Shown here: in pieces, positions 9,442 to 33,446 of the stretch
How the letters are laid out: every line of letters starts with the position of its first letter
Position numbering within the stretch: the first letter of the stretch is position 1
Virus record (IMG/VR): IMGVR_UViG_3300029612_000018
From: a virus
DNA length: 41,036 nucleotides
Direction: 5' to 3' (one strand)
Translations under genes and position numbers: made by a program
Notes under the pieces: model-generated
Seen by the model: the letters and a program-made list of their open reading frames with translations, nothing else
Databases searched by the model: none
What the model was told of the DNA's origin: nothing

Positions 9442-10250
9442 TGGCTTATACATACAAGGTTTACGGCACAGGCGATGTTGACAATGCGGTTAATAACTAT
9501 AACCGTGTTGCCTCATCAGCTCCGACATACGCTGACAGTTACGACACAAGACAGGCTCGTCAGCAGGCTGACAACTACGCTAATTCCTACACGGATAAAA
9601 TCAATAAGGGATATACGAGCAAGTACAAGGGAGCGATTGACGAGCTTGCCAATCAGTACCAAAAGAATAAATTTGACTGGACTCCCGAAAATTCTTCTGA
9701 ATATCAAAAGGCGAAAGAAAAATATACCCGTGAGGGTAAGGTTGCACAGGAAAATGTACAAGGAAGTTATGCAGCTAACACAGGCGGTTACAGTAACACT
9801 TATGCACAGGCGGCAGGACAAAAGGCATTCGGCGAGTATATGGACGAGCTTGCAAACAAGGTACCAACACTAAAAAATGAAGCCTACAAGAGTTATCAGC
9901 AACAGCAGGAAGATACACTAAACAGAATCGGCGTATTGCAGAACCTTGATAACACGCAATATCAGCGTTACAGGGACAGCGTAACGGATGATTACGACTT
10001 TATGACCTATTACGAAAACAAGTACGGCACAAGCAAAGGCCTTGATATGAGTAATTTTCAAAATGAACTGGCTAACTGGCAGACACAAATGTCAGCGGCA
10101 CAGAGTAATCTTTCAGATATCAGAAGTCTTGCCGAGGCACAGTATGAACACAATACATTGAGTGCCGACACAAGGTCAAGCATTGACAGCCAGCGCAGAC
10201 AGTCGGACGCTTATTACAATTATCTGAACAGTCAGGTAAAAATAAAGTGA
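9441..10250 (+). CDS. Q/N/Y-rich virion protein, paralog A (candidate internal or ejection protein)
   Basis: 269 aa, ATG overlapping the upstream TAA. It shares ordered motifs with the next ORF (ADNY..SY..K, GGY..TYA, T.Y.R.RD.V.DY). Confidence 0.6.
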   Translation: MAYTYKVYGTGDVDNAVNNYNRVASSAPTYADSYDTRQARQQADNYANSYTDKINKGYTSKYKGAIDELANQYQKNKFDWTPENSSEYQKAKEKYTREGKVAQENVQGSYAANTGGYSNTYAQAAGQKAFGEYMDELANKVPTLKNEAYKSYQQQQEDTLNRIGVLQNLDNTQYQRYRDSVTDDYDFMTYYENKYGTSKGLDMSNFQNELANWQTQMSAAQSNLSDIRSLAEAQYEHNTLSADTRSSIDSQRRQSDAYYNYLNSQVKIK

Positions 10251-10251
10251 G

Positions 10252-11475
10252 GTGAGAAAATTGAGTGTGAACAGTGAAGAAAAAATTTATAATGACCTGA
10301 TGAATGAAGTACCAAGTCAGACGGTGAGCGGTGACACTAAGCAGAGTGCCGCCGCTCTTGCGGGTGCAGAATCGACAGCGACAGGACAGGCTGACAACTA
10401 TAAAAGCACTTACAGCGGTAAGTTAGATGACGCCATAAGTAACTATCTGACAGGCAGAGGATTTGAATATGATCCGACGCAAGACAAGGCATATCAGCAG
10501 TACCGCAAGGAATTTGCACAGAATGCCGCTATGGCACGAGATACGAGCCGTAACACAGCTAATCAGCTTTCAGGCGGTTACAATCCTACCTATGCCGATA
10601 CTGTCGCAGACGAGGTCTACAATGACCGTATGGGGAATATAAGCGATGCGGAAAGCACATTTAAGGGGCTTGCACAACAGGACTATCAGGCAAAGCAGGA
10701 GAAAAACGCAAATGTGCTTAACCTTTACAATACGCTTGAGGGTACGGATTACAGCCGTAATCGTGACACGGTAGGAGACTACAAGAACTATCTTAATCTT
10801 CTTGCAAGCAGGTACTCAACCGACAGACAGGCAGACACAAACCTTGACAGTGCTAACAATGATGTTTACTCAGCAAAACTTAACGGAGCAGTAAATAATC
10901 TCTCATCAGCAAGAGCAGCAGACAGTCAGCGTTATTTGTATGACACGGTAAGTGCCAATCAGCTTGCACAAAATGCACAGGCTGAAAGAGAAAACGCTCA
11001 GAAGATTGAATACGATAAAAATAAATCTGCTTATGACGCTTATGTTAAGGCTCAGACAGAGTTGGCAAAAGAACAGAAAGCTGCACAGGAGAAAGAGGAT
11101 AACCGCAGATACAGAGCGGCATATGATAAGTTCGTAGATGCATATGACCTTAAAAATGCTAAGTATGAATACAAGGTCGGTCAGCTTGCACAGGGCTATT
11201 ATAACGGCTACATCACGCTCGACGAAATGGATTATATTGCAGAAAAGCTCAATGTCAGCACAGCTGACCTGACAAGCACGCTTGACAGGATGAGCAAAAA
11301 CGGCGGAACGCTTAATGATGACCACTACGGCGGTCCGAACTCAATGAGTATCGGTAAAAACACTGATTATTTTCAAACGTCAACTTCAAGAGTTACTACG
11401 GACGAAAACGGAAAAACAAAATATTTATCGGAAAAAGAGTGGAACGAACTACCGATAAATAAGAAGAAAAAGTGA
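10252..11475 (+). CDS. Q/N/Y-rich virion protein, paralog B (candidate internal or ejection protein)
   Basis: 407 aa. Start is GTG 10252 or TTG 10261 behind GAGGTGAG. It is a paralog of 9441..10250, and its C-terminal TDENGKT..EW motif recurs at the N-terminus of the giant ORF. Confidence 0.6.
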   Translation: MRKLSVNSEEKIYNDLMNEVPSQTVSGDTKQSAAALAGAESTATGQADNYKSTYSGKLDDAISNYLTGRGFEYDPTQDKAYQQYRKEFAQNAAMARDTSRNTANQLSGGYNPTYADTVADEVYNDRMGNISDAESTFKGLAQQDYQAKQEKNANVLNLYNTLEGTDYSRNRDTVGDYKNYLNLLASRYSTDRQADTNLDSANNDVYSAKLNGAVNNLSSARAADSQRYLYDTVSANQLAQNAQAERENAQKIEYDKNKSAYDAYVKAQTELAKEQKAAQEKEDNRRYRAAYDKFVDAYDLKNAKYEYKVGQLAQGYYNGYITLDEMDYIAEKLNVSTADLTSTLDRMSKNGGTLNDDHYGGPNSMSIGKNTDYFQTSTSRVTTDENGKTKYLSEKEWNELPINKKKK

Positions 11476-11486
11476 GGACTGTATAT

Positions 11487-14400
11487 ATGGCACAGCAAAG
11501 AAAAAGAACCGCAGGCGACGATTTAAGAGATTTTAAAGCAGGCAAAATCAGCGGAAACTTTTATCACAACGGTATTGACCGTTCGGATAATTATATTCAG
11601 CATACATCAGCACCGAGGTATATAACCGATGAAAACGGAAAAACGCAGGTGGCTTCATATAACGAATGGATTCAGCAGGAAGTATTTCAGCATCAACACG
11701 ATTTACCAAACGACACAAGTTCGACATCATCAAATAATAAAACAGCGACAAATGATATTTCTGTAAAAAGCAGTAACAATACTTCTTCAAGTGCAGGCTC
11801 GGATATTAAATCCTTTTTTAGTGGAAATTTGAATAATGCGAACAGCTCCGCAGAGGATTTGAAGGACGCAATTAAAAACCCGAACAAGTCTTTGAATGAT
11901 AGAGTTAAAGGACTTACATACATGTATAATGCTGCGGTTGCGACAGGTGACACCAAAACCGCCGAGAAAATGCAGAAAGAATATGATGAACTTGCCGACA
12001 GGGTTAATAAGCAGACGGAAATAAACCGACATAACGCTAAGGAATATGCGCGCAGTCAATCTTTAAAAGGTATGACCGAAGAAAGAAAAGCATTAGTTGA
12101 TGAACGCAACAAGTATGCACTTGATAACGGACTTGTAACCTCTACAGGTATTGATACAAGAAAAAAGGATAGGTATAAAGTTTATTCAGAGTACAATTCA
12201 AAAATTGATGAGCTTGACAAACAGATTGCAGAAAAGCAGAGAAACGGCGAGTATGATTTAAGTGATTCGCAGAAAGCTGTTCTTGCCGATATTGGCAACA
12301 AAGCAAACAAACTTACGGAAAGTTTTGAAAACAAATATAAAAACTCAACGCTTGAGCAGAGGCTTAATGCGAGATTGCACGCAACAACAAGTGAGCTTAA
12401 CTGGCTTAATAAGCATATGTATGACAATGCCACAAGCGAAGAACTTGAAAAATACAACCGGGAACTGAGCAAAGAATACGAAAATCTGTATGACAGAGGA
12501 ACAACAGGTACAGACGAAAACAAAGAAGCAAGACGCAGGAATATTGAAGATGAACAGGATAAAATTGATACATACATCAATAGAGCTAAACTCTCTGAAC
12601 AGAAGAAAAAAGAGTATGACGATATAGTTGATAAGAATGTTATACTCAAAACTGTAATGCAGAAGTACTATGCTTTACAACACTATGATGATACCAAGCA
12701 TATGCTTGCAAGTACAGGACACGATACTGACAGCATAAAAAATCAGGTGACTCTTGATGATTATAACTACATTAACAAGTTGTCCGACAAAGAGCGTACA
12801 CAGATTGAAAAGAATTTTAAGAATCTGAAAAAGGAAGGTTATGACACCGAATCATTATATAAATGGTATGAAAGAGAAAGAGATGAAGAAAAAGCAGCGG
12901 AAACTACAAGAATAAGTACAGAGTATGCTGATGAACATCCTATACTCGGTTCAATTGCAAGCGTAGGAGCAAGGCTCGGTGGTGCTGTTCCCGATGCCGC
13001 AAAATATATTTCAACCGACCTTGATAAAAAATATAACGGCGGTGACGGCTACATTAACCCCGAAGCAACCAATACCGCTATATCTGACGCTATGCGTGCG
13101 AAAGTATCAGAAAACATTAACAATGATTTCGGTTCATTCCTTTACAACACAGGAATGAGTATGGCTGACTTTGCCTCTTTGTTACCGCTTAATGCCGTTC
13201 CGGGCGGACAGGCTTTGTCACTCGGCATTATGGGCACAAGTGCCGGTGTCGGTTCGGCGAATGAAGTTATCAACAACGGCGGTACAATTGACAACGCAGT
13301 CAAGACAGGTATTGCGGCAGGCATTGCAGAAACCCTTTTTGAAAAGGTATCTTTGGAACAGCTTTCAGCATTTAAGGCAAGCGGAAAAAGCACATTTCGT
13401 GCGGCTGTCGGCAATGTGCTTAAAGGTGCATTTACTGAAGGCTCGGAAGAGGCTTTTACCGACCTTGCAAACAGATTGACTGATGACGCAATAAACAAGG
13501 ATTTATCTTCATACAACCTTTCAAAGAAAAATTATATGGAACAGGGAATGAGTGAGGCTGAGGCGGAGAATGCCGCAAGCTGGGACTTTTGGAAGAATGT
13601 CGGACTTGATTTTGCCGGCGGTGCAATATCGGGTGGTGTGCTTAACCTTGCTACCGCAGGAATTAATCTTGCAGGTGCAAAAATTGATATGGCCCAAAAT
13701 AAAGAGAGCAACGCACAAATCGGTAAAGCTGTTATGGCCGATGAAAACTTTGACCTTGATTTACTCATTAGGCAAGGACTTGCAACCGACAAAAACGATA
13801 GAGCATACAACTATGCACACAAAATGCAGAAACTCGTTGAAACCGATAACGAGGGAAAAATCAGTGCCGGAGATGTCGGCAACCTTATGTATCTTATCAA
13901 CAGAGAGGTTGGCAAAAATCCCGAACTTGTAAACAAAATTGCTCAGGTTAAAAAGCAGAACACACGAGAGCAGAGTAATCAGACTGTTAATGCTCAGAAC
14001 GAACAGAGCCCTACACAGCAGAACACGGCTCAGAACGGACAGCAGAACGCAGAACAGGCACAGGCAAGCACTGTAATCAATGCAACAAAAAAAGCCGATA
14101 CAGAGGATATCGGCAAAATGTACGGCGTATATGCTTTTGGCAAGAAGCATCCAAACGGCATTATCGCAACAGATACTTCAACGGGTAAGGTTGTCAAGGT
14201 TGCACTAAAGAGCCTTGAAAGCTCAGCAAAAATCAATCGCAGTGATGAAGAAAATACACTTGTGTTCAACACAAATGACGGTAAACAGGTTAATGCGGAC
14301 AGCATAACATTCTCTGACAGTCAGTTTGATACGATTGTTCACAGTGCAAACGAATTTGATACATACGGTGCAAGGAACTATATTTCAAACTTTGAAGAAT

Positions 14401-17400
14401 GGAGAGAAAGTCCGCAGGCTCAGAGAATGACTGATGACGAAATGCTTTATAAATATAACAAAGCATATTCAGCCGCATACAGCTTTGGTCGAGAGGGCGT
14501 TAAACTTGATTCACTCAGAGAAACTTCTGAATATACGATTCTTAAAAATATTCTCGGTGAACAGATTGTAAGTCAGGCATTGAGCACCGGCAGAAGAGAT
14601 GTTGACATTAACACTCAACACCATGCCAACAGACTGACCGAGTTAATCAACCGCAACGGCAGAGCCGACACAAGCGGTGTGAGCGTGTATGCAGACAGCG
14701 GAACAGATGTTTCACACATTCCGCAGGAGCTTATTAATACACTCGGCAACCTTGCAACAAAGACGGGCAGAAACATTATTATCTCAGACCGCCTTGCAGA
14801 CGGAGTGAACGGTGTTGCAAAAGACGGCAATATTATCCTCAGTTCAGAAATCAGCAGTCAGAAAATTCTTGCCACAGCTTTACATGAAGCCGGACATATG
14901 ATTAAGAAAACCAACCCGACCGAGTGGCGAACATTGAGTGACTTTGTAGCTGACTACCTTGTACGCAAAGGTGTTGACCTTAACAAGATGATTGACCGCA
15001 CAATTGAGAGATACGGCAACCGACTGCAGGCCGATGAACACGAAAACACAAGAGATGCCGCTCTGGAAGAAATTGTATGCGACACACTTATGAGCATTGC
15101 CTCAGATGAAAAGGCTCTCAATATTGCCCTCAGCACCAAGCAGAATAAATCAAAAATTGCAGCGGCAATTAAATCTTTGATTGAAAAAGTAAAGAATTGG
15201 CTCATCGACAAAAGCACAAACTACGGAGCTAAAGCATTTGCAAAAGACCTTGAAGCACTTGAAAACCTCGCTCAAAGATTTTCTGAGGCGGCAGACACCG
15301 CAAGAGAAAATATCACCGAGCAAGCAGAGGTTCAGAACGGTGAGAGGTTGGATGTTGAGAAATATTCAATAGGAAGTACCGACAACATAGTACAAGCGGA
15401 ATTTGAAAAGAAAGTTGATGAAATTGAAAAAAACACCTACAACAGTGATAATGTTGTAATTATGGGTATTACACCTAAAATCCTTCAAAAAATCGGATTA
15501 GCACCATTACCTCTTGCTATGACTAAAAATCATATTTATTCTGTCGCAGTATCAGATACAAGAGCAAAAAGTGAGGGGAGATATCATAAAAATACCAATT
15601 ATCACAATTTAGGGTTTGATACTGTAAAAGATATTTACAATAAAATTTCTGATCCGCTTATGGTAATAGCTCACCCTGATTTTGCGGTAAAGAAAAATAA
15701 GAGCAAAGACAGCACCCATAAAGTAGTTGTTTTAGTTGATTTATCAGTTGGCGGAAAACAGGTAATTGCACCGATAACTGTTGATTATGAGGGAATGTAC
15801 AATAACACACACATAGATGTTAATCTTGTTGCAACATATTTTGATAAGGATAATATCAACGATTATATAAAAGAAGCCATTGCTTTGGAAACAATGGGCA
15901 AAACAGGATTCTTTTATTTAGACAAAAAAAGAACCCAGAATATTTTTAAGAAGTCAGGGTACCAATTACCCAGCCGACTTAAAAATTCGGGTTCCAATAT
16001 TATTATACGTCCTATTGATGATATTGTCAATAAAAAAATCAATAATATTACTCAAAGCAAACAATTTATCAGATGGTTCGGTGATTGGCAGAATAGCCCT
16101 GCAAAAGCGAGTAAAGTGGTAGACAACAACGGTGAACCGCTTGTTTTGTACCACCAAACAGAAAAAGAGTTTACAACCTTTGATACAAAACAAAAAGGCT
16201 CGGGAGAATTTGACAGTGAAATGCCTACGGGTATATTTATGAAACCGACAAACAACGATATCGGAGTTGGCGGAAATATTCAAATGCCGTTGTATGCCTC
16301 TATTAAAAATCCCCTCATTGTCAACAACAGAAGCGAACTTGTTAAATTTTACGATAAGAATGTACAGGGATATACGAAAGCTAAAAGTGCGATAGACAGC
16401 GTTAATAAGGAATACAAGGCTAAATTCAACGAGGAGATGAAAAGAGAAAACGAGGAATATCAAAAGCTGTGGAATGCGAAAAAGAACGGTGAAATATCTG
16501 AAGAAGAGTACCAAAAATCCATATCAAGAGATGCACTTGATGAAATTATGGAAGAATGGGAAAATAAGGTTAATGAAGCAAGCCATAACGCTAAAGCCTT
16601 GATAGATGATTATTTCAAAAACAGCAATTATGACGGTGTTATCGTTAATAATGATGTCGGCAGTTTTGGAAGAAGCACAAAAACATTCATAGCATTTGAA
16701 AATACTCAGGTTAAATCTGCAACAGACAATATCGGAACATTTGACGGCAATAATCCTGATATTCGTTACAGTCTTGATGAAGATTATGATTTTACAGATG
16801 AAGATGAAAAAGCCGGTGCAATACACGATACGCTGAATTTTTCAATTGACGATGAATACGATGATTGGCTTGTGAATGACGACGGCAAAAGTGTTTTTGA
16901 CGCTGTAAAGGACGAAAAGAACCCCGACAGGCGGATCAGCATTTTATATCATTATGCCGGCAAAACCGCCGAACACGGAATGCGCGTGGGCAAGGATATA
17001 CGAATCGGTCAATCAGGAATGCACCGTCTTGTGTGTAATGTTTTGCAGGAATACGGAGTAAATCTTAACGGTAAGAACAAATCAAGAATTGAAGCGTTTA
17101 AGTCAGTTGTAAATGACTTTGAAAATTCCGTCAAAAATGATACGCAGAGTTTTAACGATGCAATTGAGAGCCTTGCGGAAGAATGCAAAGAATATCTGAA
17201 AAAATCTTCCTTGATTGACAAAAAGCATTCCGAGTGGGCAAAGGATTTAAGCGACAGTCTGAAAGAGGTTACCCTTGTTATTCCGAAAGGTGACATTGAT
17301 TTTATTAAAAGCGCCTACGGCAGTATTACAAACTTCCGTAAAGCACTTATGGGTAAAATCAACATCAGAACAGCAAAGGGATATGCTCTCATCGAAAGTG

Positions 17401-20400
17401 TAAACGAGGGCAGTATTGAAGATGTCGGAAATTCAATTTCAGAGATTATCGGAGATATTGCAGGGATTGATGAAACTTTTAACTGGAGAAGTGAAGAGGG
17501 ATATAAAACACTTGAAAGGTTTATTAACTATGACCTTGCAGAACATTTTGTTTCAATTGACGGAAAGAGTGTACAGTCAATTGACGAAATGGCAATTGAA
17601 ATGGCTTTTGATGTTGCTACGGAATATTTGAAACAACAGGCAAAAGAAGTTGTTCTTGACAATAATGCCAATAAAGAATTATTGCACAGTATTACCGAAA
17701 TATATAATCAGGCTAACGAGGAACACAAACTGCTCTTAAAAGAAAAGAATGCAAGATATGCAGAACAGATTTCAGAGCAGAAGAAAAATGCCGAAAAGCA
17801 GATTAAATCTTTGGTAAGAAAGAACAATAAGAAAACCGAGCAGTATATCAAAAATGATATTAAGCTGAGGAATAAAATCAAAAGCGATGCAAAGGAATAC
17901 AGAATTACTCTTCGTGCAACAAAAAAGACGGTTGCAGAAGAATACCGTGCTGAGCGTGATAAAACGAAGTATCGTCAGAAAATCAGTACAACGCTTGAAA
18001 GGCTTATTAACAGACACTTAAAGCCTAAGCCGAGCAATAATGTTCCTATTTCGGTTGTGAAACCTTTGTACAGACTTCTCTCCGAATTGACAGGCAATTA
18101 TTCGGGATTTTCCAAAGGTGTAAACGACATTACGGAAAAGACGGGATATAACAAAACCGTCAATCAAAAAGATGAAAGAGTAAACAAAGTAACATTGTCA
18201 GCAGAAACCGAGAAACTTATTTCGGCTTTAAACAGCGAAATTGCAAATACTGATGGAAAAATTACTTTACCACCGGCAATGAGAAACGCTTTGCTGGGAT
18301 ATAATGTGTTTGACAACAAAGGCAATATCAAACAGCATTTTACAGGGCTTCTTGAAGATGTAAGAAATATTTTTGAGAAAGCCGAGAAAAACGGAAAAAC
18401 CTCGTTAAAGGACTTTTCTCTTAGTGAGCTGAAAAGAATAAGCACAGCTTTCAGCGAAGTAAAGAAACTGCTTGACGCTGCAAATAAGATTGTCATTAAC
18501 GGCAAGGAGTATGACGCTTATCTTGTATCACGAAAAGGTGCTGAGGAACTCAAAAAAGTTACAGGCACACACAAGAAAGGTTCTAATACACAGGCAAGCA
18601 CTGCCAAGAGGACGCTTTTGGCATACCGCAAATATATGTCAGATCCGATACGCTTTGCACGAATGATTTCGGGTTATCACAATGACAGCGTGATTGTTCA
18701 GCTGATGGATATGCTGAATCAGGGACAGTCGGACGCAGAACAATTAAGCATTGACTGGACGAATAAGTATGAAGAACAAATGTCCCGTTTCTCATATAAA
18801 GCCAAAAAGGATTATGTCAGAGAGCAGGCAATGGAATTTGACGGCATAGACCCTAACACCAAAGAGGAACTTGTTGACAAGAAAACAGGCGAACAGGTTA
18901 AAGTTGGACTTACTGCCGATATGCTTGTTGAAATGCTCCTTGAATATGAGGATGAATACGGCAGGGCACATATGATGTACAGCGGTTATCAAGTGCCGAA
19001 TATCAAGTACATAAAACGGAAAAACCAACAGCTTATGTATTCAAAGGACAGCGGTTGTTATATTCTTCCCACAGAGTCGGATATTTCACGAATCAGGGAT
19101 TATGTCATGAACAATGAGATTGCAAAAACTGTTTATGAAATTTGCCGTGAGATGTACAATGAAGATATGCAGAATGCCGTCAACAAGGTGTCAAACGAAA
19201 AATACGGATATGAAATTGCAAAGGTAAAAAACTATTGTCCTATCACGATTGACGAAGATACGGTTTACGGAACATTTGCCGATGTGCTGATTAACAGAAG
19301 TATCAACAGCCGAGCATTCCTTCATGAAAGAGAAAATTTCAAGTACAACAGGCTGAAACTTAAAGGTGCAACGGCAAAGCTTACCTCTCAGATTAAAAGC
19401 GTGTCAAGCTGGTGCGGTCTTACGATGCCGATTGAAACATTTAACCGTGTGTTCAATATGCCACGCTACGACCACAAAAATGACAGCCTTGTTAAAGCTG
19501 TTCAGGAAGAAAACCTTAATTCTGCCGAAAATATCAGACAAAAAAATAACACCCATGCGGATGAAGAAGAAAAATCCAAGCTGAGCATTGACGAACACTT
19601 TACCGATAAGTACGATGAATGGGATAAAAAGGGCGGACGATTTTCGTTCAGAGTAGGAACAACATCAGAGGTTCTTCAAAGATTGGGTGTTGACGATAAA
19701 AATATTTGGTGGGATACTTCCAAAATACTTAAAATCAAAAACAAACACCCTGAAATGACAGATGATATTCTTAAACAAGTGCCTAATGTTTTGAAATCGC
19801 CTATTATTGTTATGGAGTCATATACAGTTAAAGGTAGATTAGTATTATTTGGTGATGTTTACGATGCAAAAAATAATCCCGTGTTGGTAGCTTTAGAGTT
19901 AAATCCTATAGGAGAGGGTGGAAAAAGCCTTGATATTATAAAAATAGCAAGTGCCTACGGCAAAGACAGTAATTTGCAACATATGATTGATAAAAGTAAT
20001 ATATTGTATGTTGAACCAAATGAAAAGAGAACCCATACTTGGCTAACGGGTAATGGGCTCCAATTGCCTCTGCCTAGTTCCAAGTATGGATTCTCTGACA
20101 ATATTAAATCACAGAATCAAGGTGATGTCAAGTACAGCGTTGAAAAAGAGGCGCACTCAACGCTCAGCATTGACGAGGTTCTTGATTTCATTGAAAGGGA
20201 AGAAAAGCAAAAGAAAAAGAAGGAAAGCACATCGACAACGGAATATTTCCCGAGTATGAAGGAAATAATGAAACAGCAATGGGGCAACGAAAGCGAAGAA
20301 TACATAAGTAAACTCATGGGCGATTTGCAGGGCTCGACAAAACAGGCTGATCCGGGCAGAATTGATATGCTGACAGGAAAATATATAAGAGCGGTACTGA

Positions 20401-22235
20401 CAGCAAATATCTCTTCGGCTATCAAACAGTTATCTTCTTATCCATTGGCAGCGGCAAGGGTAGGCTGGAAAGCAACCCTTGCAGGACTTAAACACATTCG
20501 TCCGGGAAAGCATACTCCGTTTTTAAACAGAGCGTTACCCGACAGCTACAAGCAAAGTATTCCGTATGATGAAATTGCTAAATATACTCCTATACTTGAA
20601 TACAGAAAACAGGGCAACAACAGCCGTGAAATGGCAGAAATCAGCAGATACAAAGGCTTGATTGACAGTTCGGGTTGGGTAGGACATACTCTTGACCGTT
20701 TAAACTGGATCGAAAAAAATGATGTGCTTATGGTAGAAATGAACTACTGGATTGCCTATGAGCATGTAAAGGGCAATATGGGAATATCTCCCGACAGTAA
20801 GGAATTTATGCCGAATGTTGCAAAAACGCTTGAGGACATTATTAACAATATGATGCCTAACAGTTCGGTAATGCAACAAGGACAGATTTTGAGAAGTAAA
20901 AATCCCGTGAACAGAATATTTACAATTTGCAAAAGTCAGGTTTTCTGTATGGTAAATGCCGCAATGGACGCAAGCGGTGAATACAACGCAAGGCTTAAAG
21001 ATTACAAACAGGCTGCAAGTGAATTTGAAAAGAAGCAGGCGAGAACGGAAGTTAAGATTGCAAAGAAACAGCTTGCAAGGACCTACTCCGCAATTATTGT
21101 CAGTACAGCTATGACCTGCGGAATTTTGATGCCGTTGATAGCCGCATTGTTCGGCAAGTGGGACAGATACCGTGACGAGGACGGCAATATTACTCCGTGG
21201 TCTGTCGGTTCAAGGCTGTTGAAGGATTTCGGTTCTGAATTAACGGGCATGTTCCTTTTCGGTGACACGGTGTACAATACCGTATTAGCACTCATTGATA
21301 AAAACGAAGAATTTTACGGATTATCTCTTCCGGGTGTTGACACGATTAATGACTTTATAACGGGAATCATAAACATTGCCCGTTCCGATACACCCGAAAA
21401 GCTGAGAAAAAATATTTCTTCACTTGTGGGAACACTCGGAATGCTGACAGGACTTCCAACAAAGAATTTGATGAACTTGTTTCAGGGAGCATGCAATCAC
21501 ATTGAAAACTTCACAAAATACGGCGGTACACCGACTGTTAATGACTACGGTGAAGTGTCTATGCAGATGTATGCTAATTACTGCTATGAGGCTCTTATTG
21601 ACGGCGACAAAAAGAAATTTGCAAAACTTTATTCAGAATGGCTGAAAGGAAAGACTTCCACAGGCAAGCAGGTTGATAAAAGCTATATTAACAGCAAACT
21701 GAAAACAGAGCTTGAAGATGATACGGAAATCATTGCCGCAGGAAATGCGTTCTTTAACGGCGATTTGACGGCATATGAAAATACGGTTGAAAAGTATTCT
21801 GACTTAGGCTTTGACAAAACAACCGTTGTAAAAGCCATTAATTCGATTGTCAGTGACCTTGAAGATGAACAAAAAAATGCAGAAGGACTTGATAAGTACG
21901 ACAATGAAGAAGAGAGTGACAGCAAACCCGAATTGTACAAGTATTCGGATGCATTTGACTTTTTGAAGAACGGCGATACTGAAAGCTATGAAAAGGTTGA
22001 AAAATACCTTATGGAGCATAAAGGTAAGACAAAGAATCAAATGAAAAAGCTGATGCAGAGTGCAAGCCGAACTGATCCTATATTTAAAAAGTATATTGAG
22101 GCAAGCAAAAGCAATGATGCAGATACAACGCACACATTGTACAGACAGTTACTGAATATCTACGGCTCTGAAAGCAAGTTTAAATCAGCTCTCAGAAAAT
22201 GTCAGGATAAAATCAAAAAGCAAAAAAGTAAATAA
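11487..22235 (+). CDS. giant multi-domain virion protein (polyvalent-protein type)
   Basis: Uninterrupted ORF of about 3,582 codons from ATG 11487 (the ORF track starts at GTG 11472). Recognised by eye: HEAGH zincin motif at 14883-14897; two MuF-C-terminal-like modules (~15380-15990 and ~19580-20075); a FIRWFGDW...VVDNNGEPLVLYHQT module (~16050-16770); a Gly/Ala-rich hydrophobic region (~12935-13690); a C-terminal TM helix (~21085-21165). Confidence 0.85.
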   Translation: MAQQRKRTAGDDLRDFKAGKISGNFYHNGIDRSDNYIQHTSAPRYITDENGKTQVASYNEWIQQEVFQHQHDLPNDTSSTSSNNKTATNDISVKSSNNTSSSAGSDIKSFFSGNLNNANSSAEDLKDAIKNPNKSLNDRVKGLTYMYNAAVATGDTKTAEKMQKEYDELADRVNKQTEINRHNAKEYARSQSLKGMTEERKALVDERNKYALDNGLVTSTGIDTRKKDRYKVYSEYNSKIDELDKQIAEKQRNGEYDLSDSQKAVLADIGNKANKLTESFENKYKNSTLEQRLNARLHATTSELNWLNKHMYDNATSEELEKYNRELSKEYENLYDRGTTGTDENKEARRRNIEDEQDKIDTYINRAKLSEQKKKEYDDIVDKNVILKTVMQKYYALQHYDDTKHMLASTGHDTDSIKNQVTLDDYNYINKLSDKERTQIEKNFKNLKKEGYDTESLYKWYERERDEEKAAETTRISTEYADEHPILGSIASVGARLGGAVPDAAKYISTDLDKKYNGGDGYINPEATNTAISDAMRAKVSENINNDFGSFLYNTGMSMADFASLLPLNAVPGGQALSLGIMGTSAGVGSANEVINNGGTIDNAVKTGIAAGIAETLFEKVSLEQLSAFKASGKSTFRAAVGNVLKGAFTEGSEEAFTDLANRLTDDAINKDLSSYNLSKKNYMEQGMSEAEAENAASWDFWKNVGLDFAGGAISGGVLNLATAGINLAGAKIDMAQNKESNAQIGKAVMADENFDLDLLIRQGLATDKNDRAYNYAHKMQKLVETDNEGKISAGDVGNLMYLINREVGKNPELVNKIAQVKKQNTREQSNQTVNAQNEQSPTQQNTAQNGQQNAEQAQASTVINATKKADTEDIGKMYGVYAFGKKHPNGIIATDTSTGKVVKVALKSLESSAKINRSDEENTLVFNTNDGKQVNADSITFSDSQFDTIVHSANEFDTYGARNYISNFEEWRESPQAQRMTDDEMLYKYNKAYSAAYSFGREGVKLDSLRETSEYTILKNILGEQIVSQALSTGRRDVDINTQHHANRLTELINRNGRADTSGVSVYADSGTDVSHIPQELINTLGNLATKTGRNIIISDRLADGVNGVAKDGNIILSSEISSQKILATALHEAGHMIKKTNPTEWRTLSDFVADYLVRKGVDLNKMIDRTIERYGNRLQADEHENTRDAALEEIVCDTLMSIASDEKALNIALSTKQNKSKIAAAIKSLIEKVKNWLIDKSTNYGAKAFAKDLEALENLAQRFSEAADTARENITEQAEVQNGERLDVEKYSIGSTDNIVQAEFEKKVDEIEKNTYNSDNVVIMGITPKILQKIGLAPLPLAMTKNHIYSVAVSDTRAKSEGRYHKNTNYHNLGFDTVKDIYNKISDPLMVIAHPDFAVKKNKSKDSTHKVVVLVDLSVGGKQVIAPITVDYEGMYNNTHIDVNLVATYFDKDNINDYIKEAIALETMGKTGFFYLDKKRTQNIFKKSGYQLPSRLKNSGSNIIIRPIDDIVNKKINNITQSKQFIRWFGDWQNSPAKASKVVDNNGEPLVLYHQTEKEFTTFDTKQKGSGEFDSEMPTGIFMKPTNNDIGVGGNIQMPLYASIKNPLIVNNRSELVKFYDKNVQGYTKAKSAIDSVNKEYKAKFNEEMKRENEEYQKLWNAKKNGEISEEEYQKSISRDALDEIMEEWENKVNEASHNAKALIDDYFKNSNYDGVIVNNDVGSFGRSTKTFIAFENTQVKSATDNIGTFDGNNPDIRYSLDEDYDFTDEDEKAGAIHDTLNFSIDDEYDDWLVNDDGKSVFDAVKDEKNPDRRISILYHYAGKTAEHGMRVGKDIRIGQSGMHRLVCNVLQEYGVNLNGKNKSRIEAFKSVVNDFENSVKNDTQSFNDAIESLAEECKEYLKKSSLIDKKHSEWAKDLSDSLKEVTLVIPKGDIDFIKSAYGSITNFRKALMGKINIRTAKGYALIESVNEGSIEDVGNSISEIIGDIAGIDETFNWRSEEGYKTLERFINYDLAEHFVSIDGKSVQSIDEMAIEMAFDVATEYLKQQAKEVVLDNNANKELLHSITEIYNQANEEHKLLLKEKNARYAEQISEQKKNAEKQIKSLVRKNNKKTEQYIKNDIKLRNKIKSDAKEYRITLRATKKTVAEEYRAERDKTKYRQKISTTLERLINRHLKPKPSNNVPISVVKPLYRLLSELTGNYSGFSKGVNDITEKTGYNKTVNQKDERVNKVTLSAETEKLISALNSEIANTDGKITLPPAMRNALLGYNVFDNKGNIKQHFTGLLEDVRNIFEKAEKNGKTSLKDFSLSELKRISTAFSEVKKLLDAANKIVINGKEYDAYLVSRKGAEELKKVTGTHKKGSNTQASTAKRTLLAYRKYMSDPIRFARMISGYHNDSVIVQLMDMLNQGQSDAEQLSIDWTNKYEEQMSRFSYKAKKDYVREQAMEFDGIDPNTKEELVDKKTGEQVKVGLTADMLVEMLLEYEDEYGRAHMMYSGYQVPNIKYIKRKNQQLMYSKDSGCYILPTESDISRIRDYVMNNEIAKTVYEICREMYNEDMQNAVNKVSNEKYGYEIAKVKNYCPITIDEDTVYGTFADVLINRSINSRAFLHERENFKYNRLKLKGATAKLTSQIKSVSSWCGLTMPIETFNRVFNMPRYDHKNDSLVKAVQEENLNSAENIRQKNNTHADEEEKSKLSIDEHFTDKYDEWDKKGGRFSFRVGTTSEVLQRLGVDDKNIWWDTSKILKIKNKHPEMTDDILKQVPNVLKSPIIVMESYTVKGRLVLFGDVYDAKNNPVLVALELNPIGEGGKSLDIIKIASAYGKDSNLQHMIDKSNILYVEPNEKRTHTWLTGNGLQLPLPSSKYGFSDNIKSQNQGDVKYSVEKEAHSTLSIDEVLDFIEREEKQKKKKESTSTTEYFPSMKEIMKQQWGNESEEYISKLMGDLQGSTKQADPGRIDMLTGKYIRAVLTANISSAIKQLSSYPLAAARVGWKATLAGLKHIRPGKHTPFLNRALPDSYKQSIPYDEIAKYTPILEYRKQGNNSREMAEISRYKGLIDSSGWVGHTLDRLNWIEKNDVLMVEMNYWIAYEHVKGNMGISPDSKEFMPNVAKTLEDIINNMMPNSSVMQQGQILRSKNPVNRIFTICKSQVFCMVNAAMDASGEYNARLKDYKQAASEFEKKQARTEVKIAKKQLARTYSAIIVSTAMTCGILMPLIAALFGKWDRYRDEDGNITPWSVGSRLLKDFGSELTGMFLFGDTVYNTVLALIDKNEEFYGLSLPGVDTINDFITGIINIARSDTPEKLRKNISSLVGTLGMLTGLPTKNLMNLFQGACNHIENFTKYGGTPTVNDYGEVSMQMYANYCYEALIDGDKKKFAKLYSEWLKGKTSTGKQVDKSYINSKLKTELEDDTEIIAAGNAFFNGDLTAYENTVEKYSDLGFDKTTVVKAINSIVSDLEDEQKNAEGLDKYDNEEESDSKPELYKYSDAFDFLKNGDTESYEKVEKYLMEHKGKTKNQMKKLMQSASRTDPIFKKYIEASKSNDADTTHTLYRQLLNIYGSESKFKSALRKCQDKIKKQKSK

Positions 22236-28917: not shown

Positions 28918-28927
28918 AATATCATCT

Positions 28928-28945
28928 CCTGTAATGTGGTATCGG
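28928..28945 (-). repeat. 18-mer CCGATACCACATTACAGG, copy 6 (minus strand, upstream of int)
   Basis: The plus strand reads CCTGTAATGTGGTATCGG. On the minus strand the 18-mer ends 10 nt before the int ATG and merges with its RBS (ACAGGAG). Confidence 0.9.
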
Positions 28946-28989
28946 CTCTTGTTCCACCAAGTAAAAATGCCGACACCCTTTCAAATTTT

Positions 28990-29022: not shown

Positions 29023-29443
29023 AATTACCAAACCATTTAAAGGCTCGTCTAAATCCTGCTTCTTCTGCTTCAGCCACCGTCATTGCGTAGAATTCCCCTT
29101 TCTTGCTAATTTTAGTAGAATCATATTGTTGGTCGAAAGGCAAATGATATATTTTTGTTTCACCATACATATCACGACCAATATTACATTTTATACATGG
29201 GTAATCATCAACTTCAATATTTTCTTTGAATTTTATACCTAAGTATTTTGCCATTTTCTTAGCCATAGGAGATAGTTGAATATTTGTTATTAAAACTCCC
29301 TTAACATTTTCTTTAGGGCAATTGTGCTCAATGCAATAGCTTGCCATAGTACCATATAGTTGAGTTATATGTTTTTCATGTATTTCTTTTTTTGAACTCC
29401 AATATTTACATTCTCTTGTAGACTTGACCACGGTTGCCGACAT
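29021..29443 (-). pseudogene. N-terminally truncated Mrr-like (restriction endonuclease fold) protein with a C-terminal sunset-type domain
   Basis: The ORF retains ECKYW...VKGVLITN...AKKMA (Mrr_cat-like from the E-x-K onward) and IKCNIGRDMYGETKIYHLPFDQQYDSTKI...AEAEEAGFRRA. The upstream catalytic Asp region is missing, and the 5' end overlaps the relE-like gene in another frame. Confidence 0.5.
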
Positions 29444-29657
29444 CAACAATTGTTATAAGAAGAATATCGTTATTGATTTCATAGATAACACGATAATTGC
29501 CGACACGCAGACGGTAAGCGTTGCTGTTTCCTGACAAGGCTTTTACATCACCGTCAGGAAGTTTTGAAACAGCTTTCAAAATCCGTTCTTGTTGATTACG
29601 GGGCTGAGATTTAATAAACTTCTGAGCCTTTTTGTTCAGTTCAATTTTATACTTCAT
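29406..29657 (-). CDS. RelE/ParE-family type II toxin
   Basis: 83 aa from ATG 29657. Pattern DVKALSG..NAYRLRVGNYRVIYEI...ILLITIVDVGNRGQVY. The start overlaps the upstream stop by ATGA. Confidence 0.8.
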   Translation of the reverse strand: MKYKIELNKKAQKFIKSQPRNQQERILKAVSKLPDGDVKALSGNSNAYRLRVGNYRVIYEINNDILLITIVDVGNRGQVYKRM

Positions 29658-29878
29658 CACAGATTTATCCCCAACTCATTGGCAAAATCTTCAAGGCTGA
29701 CATTTTCGCTTGAGTCAGACGGGTTATTCTTGTATTCGTCATAGAGTTTCTGGCAGTAAGCGTCATCTTCTGCGTCATCTACGATATGTCTTAAACTTTG
29801 CAACATAGTGAGCAGTTCTTCAAGCTGTTCTTCTGAAAAGTCGTTTATAAGGTTAATAATTTTTTCTTTTGCTGACAT
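29657..29878 (-). CDS. putative antitoxin
   Basis: 73 aa from ATG 29878 behind AAGGAGG. Small and acidic, translationally coupled to the toxin by a 4-nt overlap. No family recognised. Confidence 0.5.
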   Translation of the reverse strand: MSAKEKIINLINDFSEEQLEELLTMLQSLRHIVDDAEDDAYCQKLYDEYKNNPSDSSENVSLEDFANELGINL

Positions 29879-29944
29879 ACGGAATCCTCCTTGTTTTATA
29901 GTATTCAAAATTCAATATAAATAATATTTCCTACACGCTTGAAA

Positions 29945-30391: not shown

Positions 30392-30420
30392 TTGACAATT
30401 GCGGACGGATATATTATAAT
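30392..30420 (+). promoter_or_regulatory. rightward early promoter (PR-like)
   Basis: Perfect consensus: TTGACA (30392-30397), a 17-nt spacer, then TATAAT (30415-30420). ATTGC-containing operator-like sites lie at about 30357, 30398 and 30428. Confidence 0.8.
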
Positions 30421-30666: not shown

Positions 30667-30669
30667 GAA

Positions 30670-30687
30670 CCGATACCACATTACAGG
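30670..30687 (+). repeat. 18-mer CCGATACCACATTACAGG, copy 1
   Basis: Starts 4 nt after the cro-like stop. A conserved extension (AAAATAACTGCAAGGGGGTGAG) runs to the ATG at 30714, 26 nt after the 18-mer. Confidence 0.9.
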
Positions 30688-30713
30688 AAAATAACTGCAA
30701 GGGGGTGAGAAGA

Positions 30714-30869
30714 ATGATGAGTGATGATGACAGAGCAAAGGTTGTAAAGTGCCTTGTGAATTTTATTGAAAGAGTTACAAAAAAAGAACGACCTTCAAAG
30801 GCAGAAGTGGAAGTTCTGCCCGAGGTCGTAAGAGCTTTAAGAGAATTTATTACCGTTCAGAATTCTTAA
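30714..30869 (+). CDS. small hypothetical protein (51 aa)
   Basis: ATG behind the GGGGGTGAG RBS of repeat copy 1. Reads MMSDDDRAKVVKCLVNFIERV... It is below the ORF-track size cutoff and was read manually. Confidence 0.5.
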   Translation: MMSDDDRAKVVKCLVNFIERVTKKERPSKAEVEVLPEVVRALREFITVQNS

Positions 30870-31044
30870 CATCCAAATAAGAATTACCGAGGGTGTCGGC
30901 AATACCGTTGAATAGTGCAGAATAGAATTCAGCTACCTGCTTTCCACCCTTTTCGTCAATTGAAATGCTTAAGTTTGGAGCAATAGCCACTAAAACATCT
31001 TTAGCGACTTTATTTGCCAATTCATCAATTGAATAATTACGCAT
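30850..31044 (-). CDS. minus-strand small ORF (64 aa), function unknown
   Basis: ATG 31044 behind GAGGAGGTGAG. It is convergent with, and overlaps by 20 nt, the 30714 ORF. A TATAAT-containing stretch lies upstream. Confidence 0.55.
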   Translation of the reverse strand: MRNYSIDELANKVAKDVLVAIAPNLSISIDEKGGKQVAEFYSALFNGIADTLGNSYLDVKNSER

Positions 31045-31123
31045 AATAAACTCACCTCCTCTCTGATTATAAATAATATCACGAGTTGAGATGAAATACA
31101 AGTTAAGTAAACAGCGTAAAGAA

Positions 31124-31141
31124 CCGATACCACATTACAGG
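31124..31141 (+). repeat. 18-mer CCGATACCACATTACAGG, copy 2
   Basis: The 44-nt stretch GAACCGATACC...GGGGGTGAG is identical to copy 1. Confidence 0.9.
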
Positions 31142-31166
31142 AAAATAACTGCAAGGGGGTGAGGAA

Positions 31167-31370
31167 ATCAATTCTAAGAAACTCAAAGAGTTAATAAAAA
31201 ATGCAGGCTACACACAGGTAAGACTTGCAGAAGAACTTGACATATCACCCAACTCTCTTTCATCTAAAATAACGGGTAAGTCCGAATTTACTTTAAGAGA
31301 AGCAAAAAAAGTTTGTGAATGTCTTGATATAGCAGACCTGAGCAAAAGGGCAGAGTTGTTTTTGACATAA
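31167..31370 (+). CDS. XRE-family HTH protein lacking a canonical start codon (ATC at the position of the repeat-associated ATG)
   Basis: The frame encodes INSKKLKELIKNAGYTQVRLAEELDISPNSLSSKITGKSEFTLREAKKV... There is no ATG, GTG or TTG between the RBS and the HTH. ATC 31167 aligns with the ATG of copies 1 and 3. Confidence 0.5.
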   Translation: MNSKKLKELIKNAGYTQVRLAEELDISPNSLSSKITGKSEFTLREAKKVCECLDIADLSKRAELFLT

Positions 31371-31371
31371 A

Positions 31372-31666
31372 AAAACAAGCACCGACGGTCCTTTCATCGG
31401 TACTTGTTCCCAATTTTTTTACCTGTGTAAATTGCAGTCAGAAGTGAGTACAAAGGTTTCTCTCGCTTTTTTAACTGGTGAGGAACCAGTGAACTTTGTC
31501 TCAACATCTGACATCAGCAAAAGGACTACCGATTTCTTGATTTACTGCGTCACTTAAGCGGTTTGGCTCCGCTGTGATAGCCTTAGCATTCGCATTTAAC
31601 AGGAACCGGCAAAGTCAAAAGTTTGGTCAAAATAACCAACTCCTTCCTTTTGCCCAAAAATAGGCT
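31372..31666 (-). ncRNA. candidate ~295-nt minus-strand transcript, noncoding or micropeptide-coding
   Basis: It is bounded by a near-consensus minus-strand promoter (31673-31701) and the bidirectional terminator. No ORF above 32 codons. Internal hairpins include ACTGGT/ACCAGT and AGCGG/CCGCT. The only RBS-preceded ORF is 15 codons (TTG 31630). Confidence 0.45.
31374..31420. terminator. bidirectional rho-independent terminator
   Basis: AACAAGCACCGA(11-nt loop)TCGGTACTTGTT stem with one G.T pair. It is flanked by AAAAA on the left and CCCAATTTTTTT on the right, so each strand sees a T-run. Confidence 0.7.
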
Positions 31667-31672
31667 AATTTC

Positions 31673-31701
31673 ATTATACAAATATTTTTGTATAACGTCA
31701 A
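31673..31701 (-). promoter_or_regulatory. strong sigma-A-type promoter on the minus strand
   Basis: On the minus strand: TTGACG (31701-31696), a 17-nt spacer, then TATAAT (31678-31673). Confidence 0.65.
31674..31695. promoter_or_regulatory. perfect 9-bp inverted repeat (operator candidate) overlapping the promoter
   Basis: TTATACAAA-TATT-TTTGTATAA. It overlaps the spacer and -10 of the minus-strand promoter and carries TATAAC on the plus strand. Confidence 0.6.
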
Positions 31702-31712
31702 ATTATTTTAAA

Positions 31713-31730
31713 CCGATACCACATTACAGG
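31713..31730 (+). repeat. 18-mer CCGATACCACATTACAGG, copy 3
   Basis: Followed by GAAATAACTGCAAGGGGGTGAGAGGA and the ATG at 31757, 26 nt after the 18-mer. Confidence 0.9.
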
Positions 31731-31756
31731 GAAATAACTGCAAGGGGGTGAGAGGA

Positions 31757-32020
31757 ATGTTTAAGTTTAAAAAGCGTAAGCGTAAGGAGATATACAACAT
31801 TGCCAAGACAGCCACGTGGGATGTTTTGTGTTCGCCTGAGTTTAGCGAACAGGTCGGAGAAAAATATCCCGATGATATGTTACACAAAAACCGTATGAGC
31901 GTGTGGATTGGAAATTTTAACAGTTACCGGGACCAAAAAATGTTTATGAAACAGTTCAGAAAGTTTGCCACCGAACTTGAGCAGAAGAGAAACCGCCACC
32001 TTTTCTATATTTTTCACTAA
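31757..32020 (+). CDS. hypothetical early protein, paralog 1 of 2
   Basis: 87 aa from ATG 31757. KEIYNIAKTATWDVL...VGEKYP...IGNFNSYRDQKMFMKQFRKFATELE parallels the next ORF. Confidence 0.6.
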   Translation: MFKFKKRKRKEIYNIAKTATWDVLCSPEFSEQVGEKYPDDMLHKNRMSVWIGNFNSYRDQKMFMKQFRKFATELEQKRNRHLFYIFH

Positions 32021-32763: not shown

Positions 32764-32811
32764 AATTAAACCACCTTTCGTTTTGATTATAACATAACGG
32801 TCAAGACAGAA

Positions 32812-32829
32812 CCGATACCACATTACAGG
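32812..32829 (+). repeat. 18-mer CCGATACCACATTACAGG, copy 4
   Basis: Perfect 18-mer. The downstream leader diverges (AAAATAAAAGTAGGGAGAATCTAT) before the ATG at 32854. Confidence 0.9.
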
Positions 32830-32853
32830 AAAATAAAAGTAGGGAGAATCTAT

Positions 32854-33024
32854 ATGAATGAAATCAGAGTGAAGATTAAAGACCTCATCAAAGAGCTTCA
32901 GATGTTGGAAAGAGACGGCTACGAATGTGCTGACCTCACAATTGAAGAAGCCGAAGAAGGCATTCCGGCTCGCATTATGCTCAGCGACTACGGCTGTGTA
33001 TTTGAATGCAAAGGGGGAGAATGA
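32854..33024 (+). CDS. small acidic protein, tandem paralog 1 of 3 (56 aa)
   Basis: Read manually: MNEIRVKIKDLIKELQMLERDGYECADLTIEEAEEGIPARIMLSDYG... RBS AGGGAG. Confidence 0.55.
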   Translation: MNEIRVKIKDLIKELQMLERDGYECADLTIEEAEEGIPARIMLSDYGCVFECKGGE

Positions 33025-33403: not shown

Positions 33404-33421
33404 TCGATACCAGATTACAGG
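33404..33421 (+). repeat. degenerate 18-mer copy 5 (TCGATACCAGATTACAGG)
   Basis: 16 of 18 bases match. Followed by AATAAATAATGAAAGGGTGAGAAGA and the ATG at 33447, 25 nt after the 18-mer. Confidence 0.75.
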
Positions 33422-33446
33422 AATAAATAATGAAAGGGTGAGAAGA

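Follow-up and report, generated by a model that had tools for sequence, protein, structure and literature searches.

FuFi-1 is a structured RNA first described by Weinberg et al. in 2017 (PMC5737381). The main text of that paper assigns no function to it: a riboswitch role is judged improbable there, self-cleavage was not found, the motif lies rarely in 5′ untranslated regions (UTRs), its features are considered suggestive of a sophisticated biochemical function, and no phage or phage-switch context is given. Our literature search found no later work on FuFi-1. Here we describe a copy carried by a viral DNA stretch of 41,036 nucleotides (nt; IMG/VR record IMGVR_UViG_3300029612_000018), the whole of which is referred to as the window. 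The copy belongs to a predicted self-contained unit of approximately 294 nt on the minus strand (31666 to 31373), comprising a promoter, a palindrome with two 9-nt arms and a terminator. In the collections scanned, the genomic surroundings show FuFi-1 to be a phage element whose place and orientation in the lysis–lysogeny switch are fixed.

The window copy shares with the published motif the four-stem junction, the conserved junction nucleotides and the 3′ Rho-independent terminator, and matches it over the full length. It differs in a 60-nt extension of stem P4; in addition, both this copy and its relatives carry a conserved 5′ module outside the Rfam model, consisting of a hairpin, a Shine–Dalgarno sequence, a micro-open reading frame (micro-ORF) and one strand of a long-range helix, P0. 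As an object, FuFi-1 is already catalogued and not new. Set against the main text of the 2017 paper, the switch context, the 5′ module, P0 and the hypervariable kissing loops may be new.

Identity and architecture of the FuFi-1 unit

An earlier note on this locus, prepared from the sequence alone, had proposed an independently transcribed structured RNA gene and suggested an Rfam scan. Run over the whole window, the scan returned a single above-threshold hit, FuFi-1 (RF02986), at 31594–31373 on the minus strand only (115.6 bits against a gathering threshold of 59.6; model positions 1–175 of 175; E = 1.3e-24), which supports the proposal. Other Rfam families gave sub-threshold chance matches only, namely rli52 (25.9 bits against a threshold of 70) and UPD-PKib, and the window contains no transfer RNA or transfer-messenger RNA genes. 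Judged by its sequence, the element is a member of FuFi-1 in every feature tested.

Homologues were collected using a 19-base signature from the 3′ junction, which matched at least 120 IMG/VR viral contigs; it replaced a 15-base signature that was too unspecific (approximately 13 true loci among 120 matches). All counts given below for viral homologues (119 loci, 94 distinct contexts and so on) refer to the matches listed. The loci carry L-numbers (L160, L244 and others), and one group of them, including L008, L014 and L124, is designated type A. The FuFi-1 covariance model scores 88–147 bits for all 14 of 14 representative homologues. The nearest relatives of the window share 92–99% identity with it (L224, L153, L132, L158, L218, L170, L179 and L167). 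In a 596-Gb genome collection the signature required a second motif as a filter and yielded 19 stringent hits, found in metagenome-assembled genomes (MAGs) of Ruminococcus, Lachnospiraceae, Oscillospiraceae, Eubacterium and Acutalibacter. These MAGs agree with the occurrence of FuFi-1 in Firmicutes and Fusobacteria, as hosts of the relatives and not of the window itself. BLAST searches of 50,697 phage records with the window unit and two other FuFi-1 types revealed no relative in a cultured phage; the sole match covered part of the 5′ module and came from an uncultured faecal phage.

The unit consists of the following features, in the direction of predicted transcription:

31696–31701, minus strand: −35 hexamer TTGACG; 11/12 matches together with the −10 hexamer, 17-nt spacer; homologues have a promoter at the equivalent position
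31674–31695, unstranded: perfect 9 + 9 palindrome TTATACAAA-TATT-TTTGTATAA, putative operator covering the spacer and the −10 hexamer
31673–31678, minus strand: −10 hexamer TATAAT; its position predicts a transcription start at about 31666
31652–31665, minus strand: 5′ terminal hairpin GCCUA-UUUU-UGGGC of the predicted fold, with a GCC/GGC equivalent in nearly all homologues
31640–31649, minus strand: Shine–Dalgarno-like sequence AAGGAAGGAG; its purine-rich AAAGGAG motif is conserved 7–9 nt before the start codon
31620–31641, minus strand: hairpin AGUUGGU-loop-ACCAAACU of the minimum-free-energy fold, with the start codon in the loop and part of the Shine–Dalgarno sequence in the stem
31583–31630, minus strand: 15-codon micro-ORF with a TTG start, MTKLLTLPVPVKCEC; its first 30 nt are nearly invariant across the family
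31599–31603, minus strand: 5′ strand CCUGU of the proposed long-range closing helix P0, inside ORF codons 10–12, pairing with ACAGG
31373–31594, minus strand: FuFi-1 core with P1/P1a, P2, P3, P4, linker and terminator (RF02986, 115.6 bits)
31520–31526, minus strand: P3 loop GUCCUUU, loop–loop (kissing) partner of the terminator loop
31445–31504, minus strand: lineage-specific 60-nt P4 extension with hairpin ACUGG-UUCCUCA-CCAGU, an insertion relative to the RF02986 model
31422–31426, minus strand: 3′ strand ACAGG of P0, directly 5′ of the conserved GGUAAA linker
31374–31408, unstranded: intrinsic terminator hairpin with a 14-pair stem, shared with a convergent gene and aligning to the RF02986 terminator
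31388–31394, minus strand: terminator loop AAAGGAC, kissing partner of the P3 loop

The promoter (TTGACG-17-TATAAT, 31701–31673) and the perfect 9-bp inverted repeat (31674–31695) named in the earlier note were recovered exactly as described. Promoter-like sites are as common in the region as in shuffles (9 against 9.0 expected), so the promoter assignment rests on homologue conservation and not on the match alone. The −35/−10 pair stands at a fixed distance from the 5′ hairpin of the RNA in all homologue lineages, accompanied by lineage-specific palindromes. A loss of promoter, palindrome or structure among homologous phages, named in the note as an outcome that would speak against the unit, is not what was found: all three are kept. 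The ordinary frequency of promoter-like sites is also the one point in favor of a chance combination of such a site with hairpins in a functionless spacer. Against it stand the Rfam E-value of 1e-24, homologues at more than 120 viral loci, two covarying tertiary pairings and the conserved context; its probability is practically negligible, and family-level conservation already refutes it.

The 294-nt RNA folds with a minimum free energy of −97.4 kcal/mol (z-score −5.4), and none of 200 shuffled sequences folds as well. All three internal hairpins pointed out earlier (ACTGGT/ACCAGT, AGCGG/CCGCT and the AGTTGGT arm) are part of this fold. In the RF02986 alignment the multi-stem junction forms, with P1 and its inner hairpin, P2, P3 and P4, and few non-standard pairs are flagged. 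Its conserved junction nucleotides appear in the window as AAGAA, CUGCAA and GGUAAA..AAA..UUGGGAA, and the P1a loop reads AGCCAAA against the consensus GAACCAAAAC. The P4 extension recurs in the diverged loci L160 and L244, where the ACUGG/CCAGU stem is replaced by (A)CCGG/CCGG(U).

The terminator had been described as bidirectional. The hairpin and T-runs on both strands are indeed there, but the two faces are unequal: on the minus strand UUUUUUU follows directly past the stem, whereas on the plus strand (CCCAATTTTTTT) the T-run begins 5 nt past it, so that termination in the plus direction is plausible but weaker. A simple generic terminator scan listed the 31374–31408 hairpin on neither strand.

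The loop of this terminator pairs with the P3 loop, and the pairing covaries strongly across the family. Approximately 30 distinct loop pairs are complementary; contiguous pairs average 4.59, against 2.75 ± 0.11 for permuted partners. The differences among 29 otherwise near-identical type A RNAs cluster in three places, namely the loops of P3 and P4 and the terminator loop together with the upper part of its stem. In type A, the loops of P3 and the terminator vary yet stay mutually complementary; this variability could represent a specificity code or merely a relaxed constraint on loop identity.

P0, the second long-range pairing, is present in the minimum-free-energy fold of the window. It occurs in compensatory versions, CCUGU/ACAGG (window), CCUGCA/UGCAGG, CCCUUG/CAAGGG, CCGUUU/AAACGG, CCUGAAAU/GUUUCAGG and CCCAAAAU/GUUUUGGG, and the anchored Watson–Crick pairs average 4.2 against 3.45 ± 0.10 with permuted partners, a value that none of 1000 permutations reached. 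Two other candidate pairings were discarded. The leader UUGGUU and the P1a loop AACCAA do not covary, loop changes in L250 and L252 lacking compensation in the leader. An antiterminator formed by the 5′ arms of P3 and the terminator holds in the window and in L131; on inspection, it fails in type A.

Six loci (L029, L038, L134, L135, L246 and L271) contain, between the micro-ORF and the FuFi-1 core, a conserved domain of approximately 170 nt that the window does not have. Its pattern is GGTCGCAA..hairpin..AAACTGG..AAATGTAGCAACTGATACGGCG..CACCGTATC (for example, at about 1600–1750 in L135). Rfam gave no hit for this domain even at E ≤ 1, and none for the 5′ module; the domain is probably an additional, uncatalogued RNA domain.

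The 5′ module upstream of the RF02986 model is kept in 93 of the 119 loci, with the promoter at a fixed distance, the small GCC/GGC hairpin and an AAAGGAG Shine–Dalgarno sequence followed by an ORF. The plus strand has only TTG ORFs of at most 42 amino acids (aa) here. The earlier note saw no convincing ORF, which understates the TTG ORF at 31630–31583, which is present as described, translates to (M)TKLLTLPVPVKCEC* and has counterparts with a Shine–Dalgarno sequence across many phages. The family consensus opens with M-T-[KQNE]-[LF]-L-x-[LM]-P-[VA]-P.

One explanation of the locus is a small-protein gene, whose peptide (a micropeptide, toxin or signal) would be the product and FuFi-1 its structured 3′ UTR. 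The strong, correctly spaced Shine–Dalgarno sequence in these 93 loci is in line with it. Translation is further argued for by the start codons, which alternate among 34 unique leaders (TTG 19, ATG 9, GTG 6), by L131, where the TTG is lost and a new in-frame ATG has arisen one codon upstream, and by Pro codon 8, for which all four synonymous codons are in use. However, synonymous and non-synonymous counts show no preference for the ORF frame (391/1345, against 501/986 and 383/1248 in the other frames), and in L164 and L136 indels of one base leave the nucleotide motif intact while destroying the LPVP residues. One further locus has CTG at the start position. Peptide length (12–36 aa among relatives, 15 aa here) and C-terminus vary, inspection of the peptides listed revealed no signal peptide or transmembrane-length segment, and the most constrained codons are those forming the P0 strand. 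The frame comparison and the indel cases led us to reject selection at the peptide level. As read from these substitution patterns, the constraint on the micro-ORF is mainly at the nucleotide level, and a small-protein gene is very unlikely.

The same observations (a variable peptide of 12–36 aa, no frame-specific synonymous excess, peptide-breaking indels) argue against a type I toxin–antitoxin locus, one of several options raised in the earlier note. No small antisense unit that could serve as its antitoxin RNA was identified; the only predicted opposing transcription is that of the early lytic operon. A type III (ToxIN-like) system finds no counterpart either, with no direct-repeat family within 31372–31701 and with neighbors that are small helix-turn-helix (HTH) or unknown proteins. 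For a signalling peptide, inspection of the peptides listed gave no signal sequence and the recurrent neighbors are not receptor-like: a test for Arbitrium/RRNPP systems found XRE/HTH proteins of approximately 60–260 aa and no TPR-family Pfam hit. Of the options in that note, a second immunity element and a regulatory antisense RNA are still the most plausible.

The 5′ strand of P0 falls within the ORF, whose stop codon in the window is located 3 nt beyond the 5′ strand of P1, so that translation and the closed fold exclude each other. Together, the promoter with its operator, the Shine–Dalgarno/micro-ORF module and the closing helix show that the functional unit extends beyond the catalogued motif.

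Position in the phage switch and proposed role

Neighbor proteins from 94 distinct viral contexts were clustered and annotated with Pfam; the recurrent clusters are small HTH regulators, cI-like repressors and recombinases. Wherever enough downstream sequence is available, the unit is followed on its own strand by a cI-like XRE repressor gene at a distance of 0.13–2 kb and, further on, by genes for tyrosine or serine recombinases. On its upstream side the unit is flanked by a small HTH gene in divergent orientation; in other cases, the window among them, a small Cro-like HTH gene is convergent with the unit and runs up to its terminator. Bacterial MAGs match the viral order (FuFi, convergent cro-like gene, cI-like gene, integrase): the cI-like XRE gene is downstream on the same strand in 15 of the 19 loci, many of which also have a convergent cro-like gene and a recombinase.

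Promoters on the opposite strand are arranged just as regularly. Of 51 contexts, 86% have one with at least 10/12 matches, aimed at the unit, within 1.5 kb downstream, and its median distance from the terminator is 123 nt; L124, L135 and L156 are worked examples of this head-on arrangement. Outward-facing promoters upstream of the unit are present in 6% of these contexts only, so early genes on the far side probably rely on transcripts that run through the unit in antisense. The unit lies on the lysogeny strand and, as stated in the earlier note, opposes the early rightward operon, a layout that recurs across unrelated phages. In the window, two features on the plus strand are concerned:

30392–30420, plus strand: early lytic promoter TTGACA-17-TATAAT, 12/12 matches; its predicted transcripts meet the unit head-on approximately 950 nt further on
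31167–31370, plus strand: convergent small Cro-like HTH gene (67 aa; Pfam HTH_3, E = 1.3e-8), its stop codon 3 nt before the terminator

The HTH gene is inherited together with the RNA and its promoter. In the diverged loci L160 and L244, the latter from a Ruminococcus sp. MAG, megablast similarity to the window is limited to 31193–31704, a block of approximately 510 bp that contains exactly these three elements. The palindrome is unique in the window, with 0.06 chance matches expected at up to 3 mismatches, and its arms ATACAAA/TTTGTAT recur in L160, L244 and L039; the lineages sharing it encode HTH proteins with a similar N[ST]LS[SA]K helix. Block co-inheritance, arms recurring in four lineages and the similar helix make the adjacent HTH protein a candidate repressor that may bind the palindrome and control the RNA promoter. 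A role of the palindrome as a cI or cro operator was rejected because it is present in a single copy and its sequence is unlike that of the AATTGCCGA/TCGGCAATT sites between cI and cro.

The HTH gene has no ATG, GTG or TTG start: the frame opens I-N-S (ATC), 8 nt past the ribosome-binding site GGGGGTGAGG. Its homologues in L160 and L244 likewise open I-N-S with no Met upstream, and the gene may use a conserved non-canonical AUH start codon. In L029-type loci an inverted copy of TTGACTGCGGCAG, the −35 region of the FuFi-1 promoter, stands just past the terminator (e.g., L156 at 10028–10056 and about 10440); type A loci have GCGTTTACCAC and GTGGTAAACGC on either side of the unit in a like manner. 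These copies look like operator pairs bracketing the RNA gene, and DNA looping between them could occur.

We hypothesize that the unit acts as a countertranscript and terminator on the lysogeny strand that brakes early lytic transcription. We hold this explanation first among those considered, at a confidence that falls just short of even. In it, the switch of a temperate phage of gut Clostridia contains a FuFi-1-class structured RNA gene, which would be transcribed from about 31666 by a σA-type promoter with a palindromic operator, in the orientation that it shares with the genes for the cI-like repressor and the integrase. The transcript would end at the strong intrinsic terminator abutting the stop codon of the convergent Cro-like HTH gene and would adopt a compact fold with the 5′ hairpin, the Shine–Dalgarno/start-codon hairpin, P0, the four-stem junction and a terminator loop paired with the P3 loop. 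Placed head-on inside the early lytic transcription unit and crossed in antisense by early transcripts, it could favor lysogeny through the reverse face of the terminator, through collision of converging polymerases, or through pairing with a stable, perfectly complementary countertranscript. The HTH protein made from the lytic transcript would shut off the unit promoter via the palindrome, giving a bistable circuit. As translation and P0/P1 formation are mutually exclusive, ribosome loading on the micro-ORF probably gates folding, and the peptide is probably not the effector.

Several points weigh against such a brake. Promoter, transcription start and termination are predictions throughout. 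On the plus strand the terminator has an imperfect face that was missed by the simple scan, P0 comprises just 3–4 bp in the commonest lineages, and the link between the HTH protein and the palindrome draws on co-inheritance and four lineages only. Type A cI-like genes have strong promoters of their own just upstream, so the unit is not needed for their expression. The 5′ end of the RNA lies approximately 90 nt short of the ribosome-binding site of the next lytic gene and does not overlap it; an antisense effect would therefore need processing or attenuation. The main weakness is that the core is conserved across phages with unrelated flanks, which is superfluous for a plain countertranscript and suggests a conserved partner, either a host factor or a ligand.

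This last point leads to the chief rival of the brake model, a trans-acting structured RNA or ribonucleoprotein. Such an RNA would bind a conserved host factor (ribosome, RNA polymerase, ribonuclease or another protein) or a small molecule, and its position in the switch would set only the timing of expression, in lysogens. The loop and junction nucleotides GAACCAAAAC, AUAGAA, CUGCAA and GGUAAACAAAUUUGG are invariant across phages with unrelated neighbors, as this explanation would have it. Within ±4 kb, none of the phage protein families accompanies the unit at every locus, which means that any partner would need to be encoded by the host. Involvement of the terminator loop in the tertiary fold is expected for a stable released RNA, and the main text of PMC5737381 likewise sees features of sophisticated biochemical function in a motif rare in 5′ UTRs. 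On the other hand, the RNA has no significant complementarity to any mRNA strand in the window; the longest perfect complementarity there is 13 nt, on non-coding strands. A 9-nt match of the P4-extension loop UUCCUCACC to the ribosome-binding site of the HTH gene was within chance, and RNAduplex target scans proved too permissive to be useful. A trans-acting role also leaves the constant orientation and position relative to the lytic promoter unexplained, and we consider it rather unlikely.

The downstream cI-like gene suggests yet another explanation, in which the unit is a conditional terminator acting in cis and resembling lambda P_RE. An establishment promoter would drive transcription, and the fold, responding to micro-ORF translation or a ligand, would decide on read-through, which would traverse the HTH and cro genes in antisense and reach those for the cI-like repressor and the integrase. 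The position upstream of a same-strand cI-like gene, seen wherever downstream sequence is available, fits this scheme, as does the micro-ORF, which overlaps P0 and ends in P1, so that its translation would remodel the fold. However, the terminator is long, has a full U-tract and is stabilized by the kissing loop; inspection of homologue sequences revealed no family-wide antiterminator pairing, and cI-like genes have their own strong promoters just upstream. A riboswitch function is held improbable in the main text of PMC5737381, and the location is not that of a riboswitch or attenuator in a 5′ UTR, the next feature downstream in the window being the convergent HTH gene. Little likelihood attaches to a conditional terminator.

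Returning to the brake model, we further speculate that FuFi-1 and its 5′ ribosome-loading module form the core of an RNA lysis–lysogeny device common to many Clostridia phages, a ribosome-gated countertranscript with kissing loops as a specificity code; in this extended form the proposal is unlikely. If the brake hypothesis is true, an RNA layer is added to the choice between dormancy and lysis in abundant temperate phages of the human gut. The orphan RNA FuFi-1 also gains a concrete genetic hypothesis that is testable in cultivable Lachnospiraceae or Ruminococcus lysogens.

Other features of the window

A direct repeat of 26–49 nt, AACCGATACCACATTACAGGAAAATAACTGCAAGGGGGTGAG, occurs at 30668–30716, 31122–31170, 31711–31759, 32810–32858 and 33405–33430, with an inverted copy at 28927–28950. 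It stands directly upstream of successive early genes and the integrase gene, in the direction of transcription, and supplies their ribosome-binding site. The copies bracket small cassettes, of which cassettes 1–3 each end in a convergent minus-strand unit (51 aa plus/64 aa minus; HTH plus/FuFi-1 minus; 87 and 121 aa plus/139 aa minus), and the order of cassettes differs among relatives. They have the appearance of junctions for the exchange of modules, or of a regulatory leader common to these genes.

The 64-aa gene (30850–31044, minus strand) lies inside the rightward early operon and is convergent with the 51-aa gene (30714–30869), making it a second unit that opposes this operon. It has a strong ribosome-binding site, GAGGAGGTGAG, and a terminator-like hairpin at 30903–30883, and gave no Pfam or PHROG match.

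Elsewhere in the window, an ORF of 3587 aa (11472–22235, plus strand) contains MuF_C and ART-PolyVal (ADP-ribosyltransferase) domains and represents a phage "polyvalent protein". The lysogeny module also contains, between the genes for the cI-like repressor and the integrase, a ParE-family toxin gene that is preceded by an overlapping ORF of 83 aa, presumably its antitoxin (29406–29660 and 29657–29908, both minus strand).

Comparison with countertranscripts, convergent promoters and toxin mRNAs

Phage immunity regions contain several countertranscripts, including lambda OOP and the P_RE transcript, P22 sar and P1/P7 c4. The FuFi-1 unit is similar to them as a short RNA in the lysogenic or immunity direction opposing an early lytic transcript, and it lies just past a cro-like gene, where lambda has tR1, P_RE and oop. 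OOP, sar and c4 measure approximately 70–80 nt and are each phage-specific. FuFi-1, in contrast, is a multi-stem RNA of 160–300 nt that includes a ribosome-binding module and has a conserved core in many unrelated phages; no overlap with a target ribosome-binding site was seen. Kissing loops used as a specificity code would be analogous to P1/P7 c4 heteroimmunity or to plasmid incompatibility RNAs.

Head-on promoters are represented by the pR/pL pair of coliphage 186, a convergent-promoter switch operating by transcriptional interference (PMC5001618). Both this switch and the FuFi-1 locus have face-to-face promoters at a developmental switch, but the 186 transcripts overlap without an intervening terminator. 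In the enterococcal plasmid pCF10, the prgQ/Anti-Q region has a 5′ micro-ORF followed by a structured RNA and a terminator; its peptide is a functional pheromone inhibitor, whereas the peptide sequence at FuFi-1 appears unconstrained. The par locus of pAD1 consists of two convergent RNAs, RNA I and RNA II, with a common bidirectional terminator. None of these three (186, pCF10 and par) has sequence or structural homology to the FuFi-1 unit.

Type I toxin mRNAs such as hok and fst offer a further parallel, with fbi 5′–3′ pairing in hok and hairpins that sequester the Shine–Dalgarno sequence. Like FuFi-1, they are compact RNAs of prophages that are closed by a long-range 5′–3′ helix, hold both the Shine–Dalgarno sequence and the start codon in a hairpin and have a strong terminator stem. 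Unlike hok and fst, FuFi-1 has an ORF too short and variable for a membrane toxin, shows no coding-type substitutions, and is accompanied by no separate antitoxin RNA that we could find. In its proposed function the FuFi-1 unit resembles the immunity-region countertranscripts and the convergent-promoter switches, but it belongs to none of those families.

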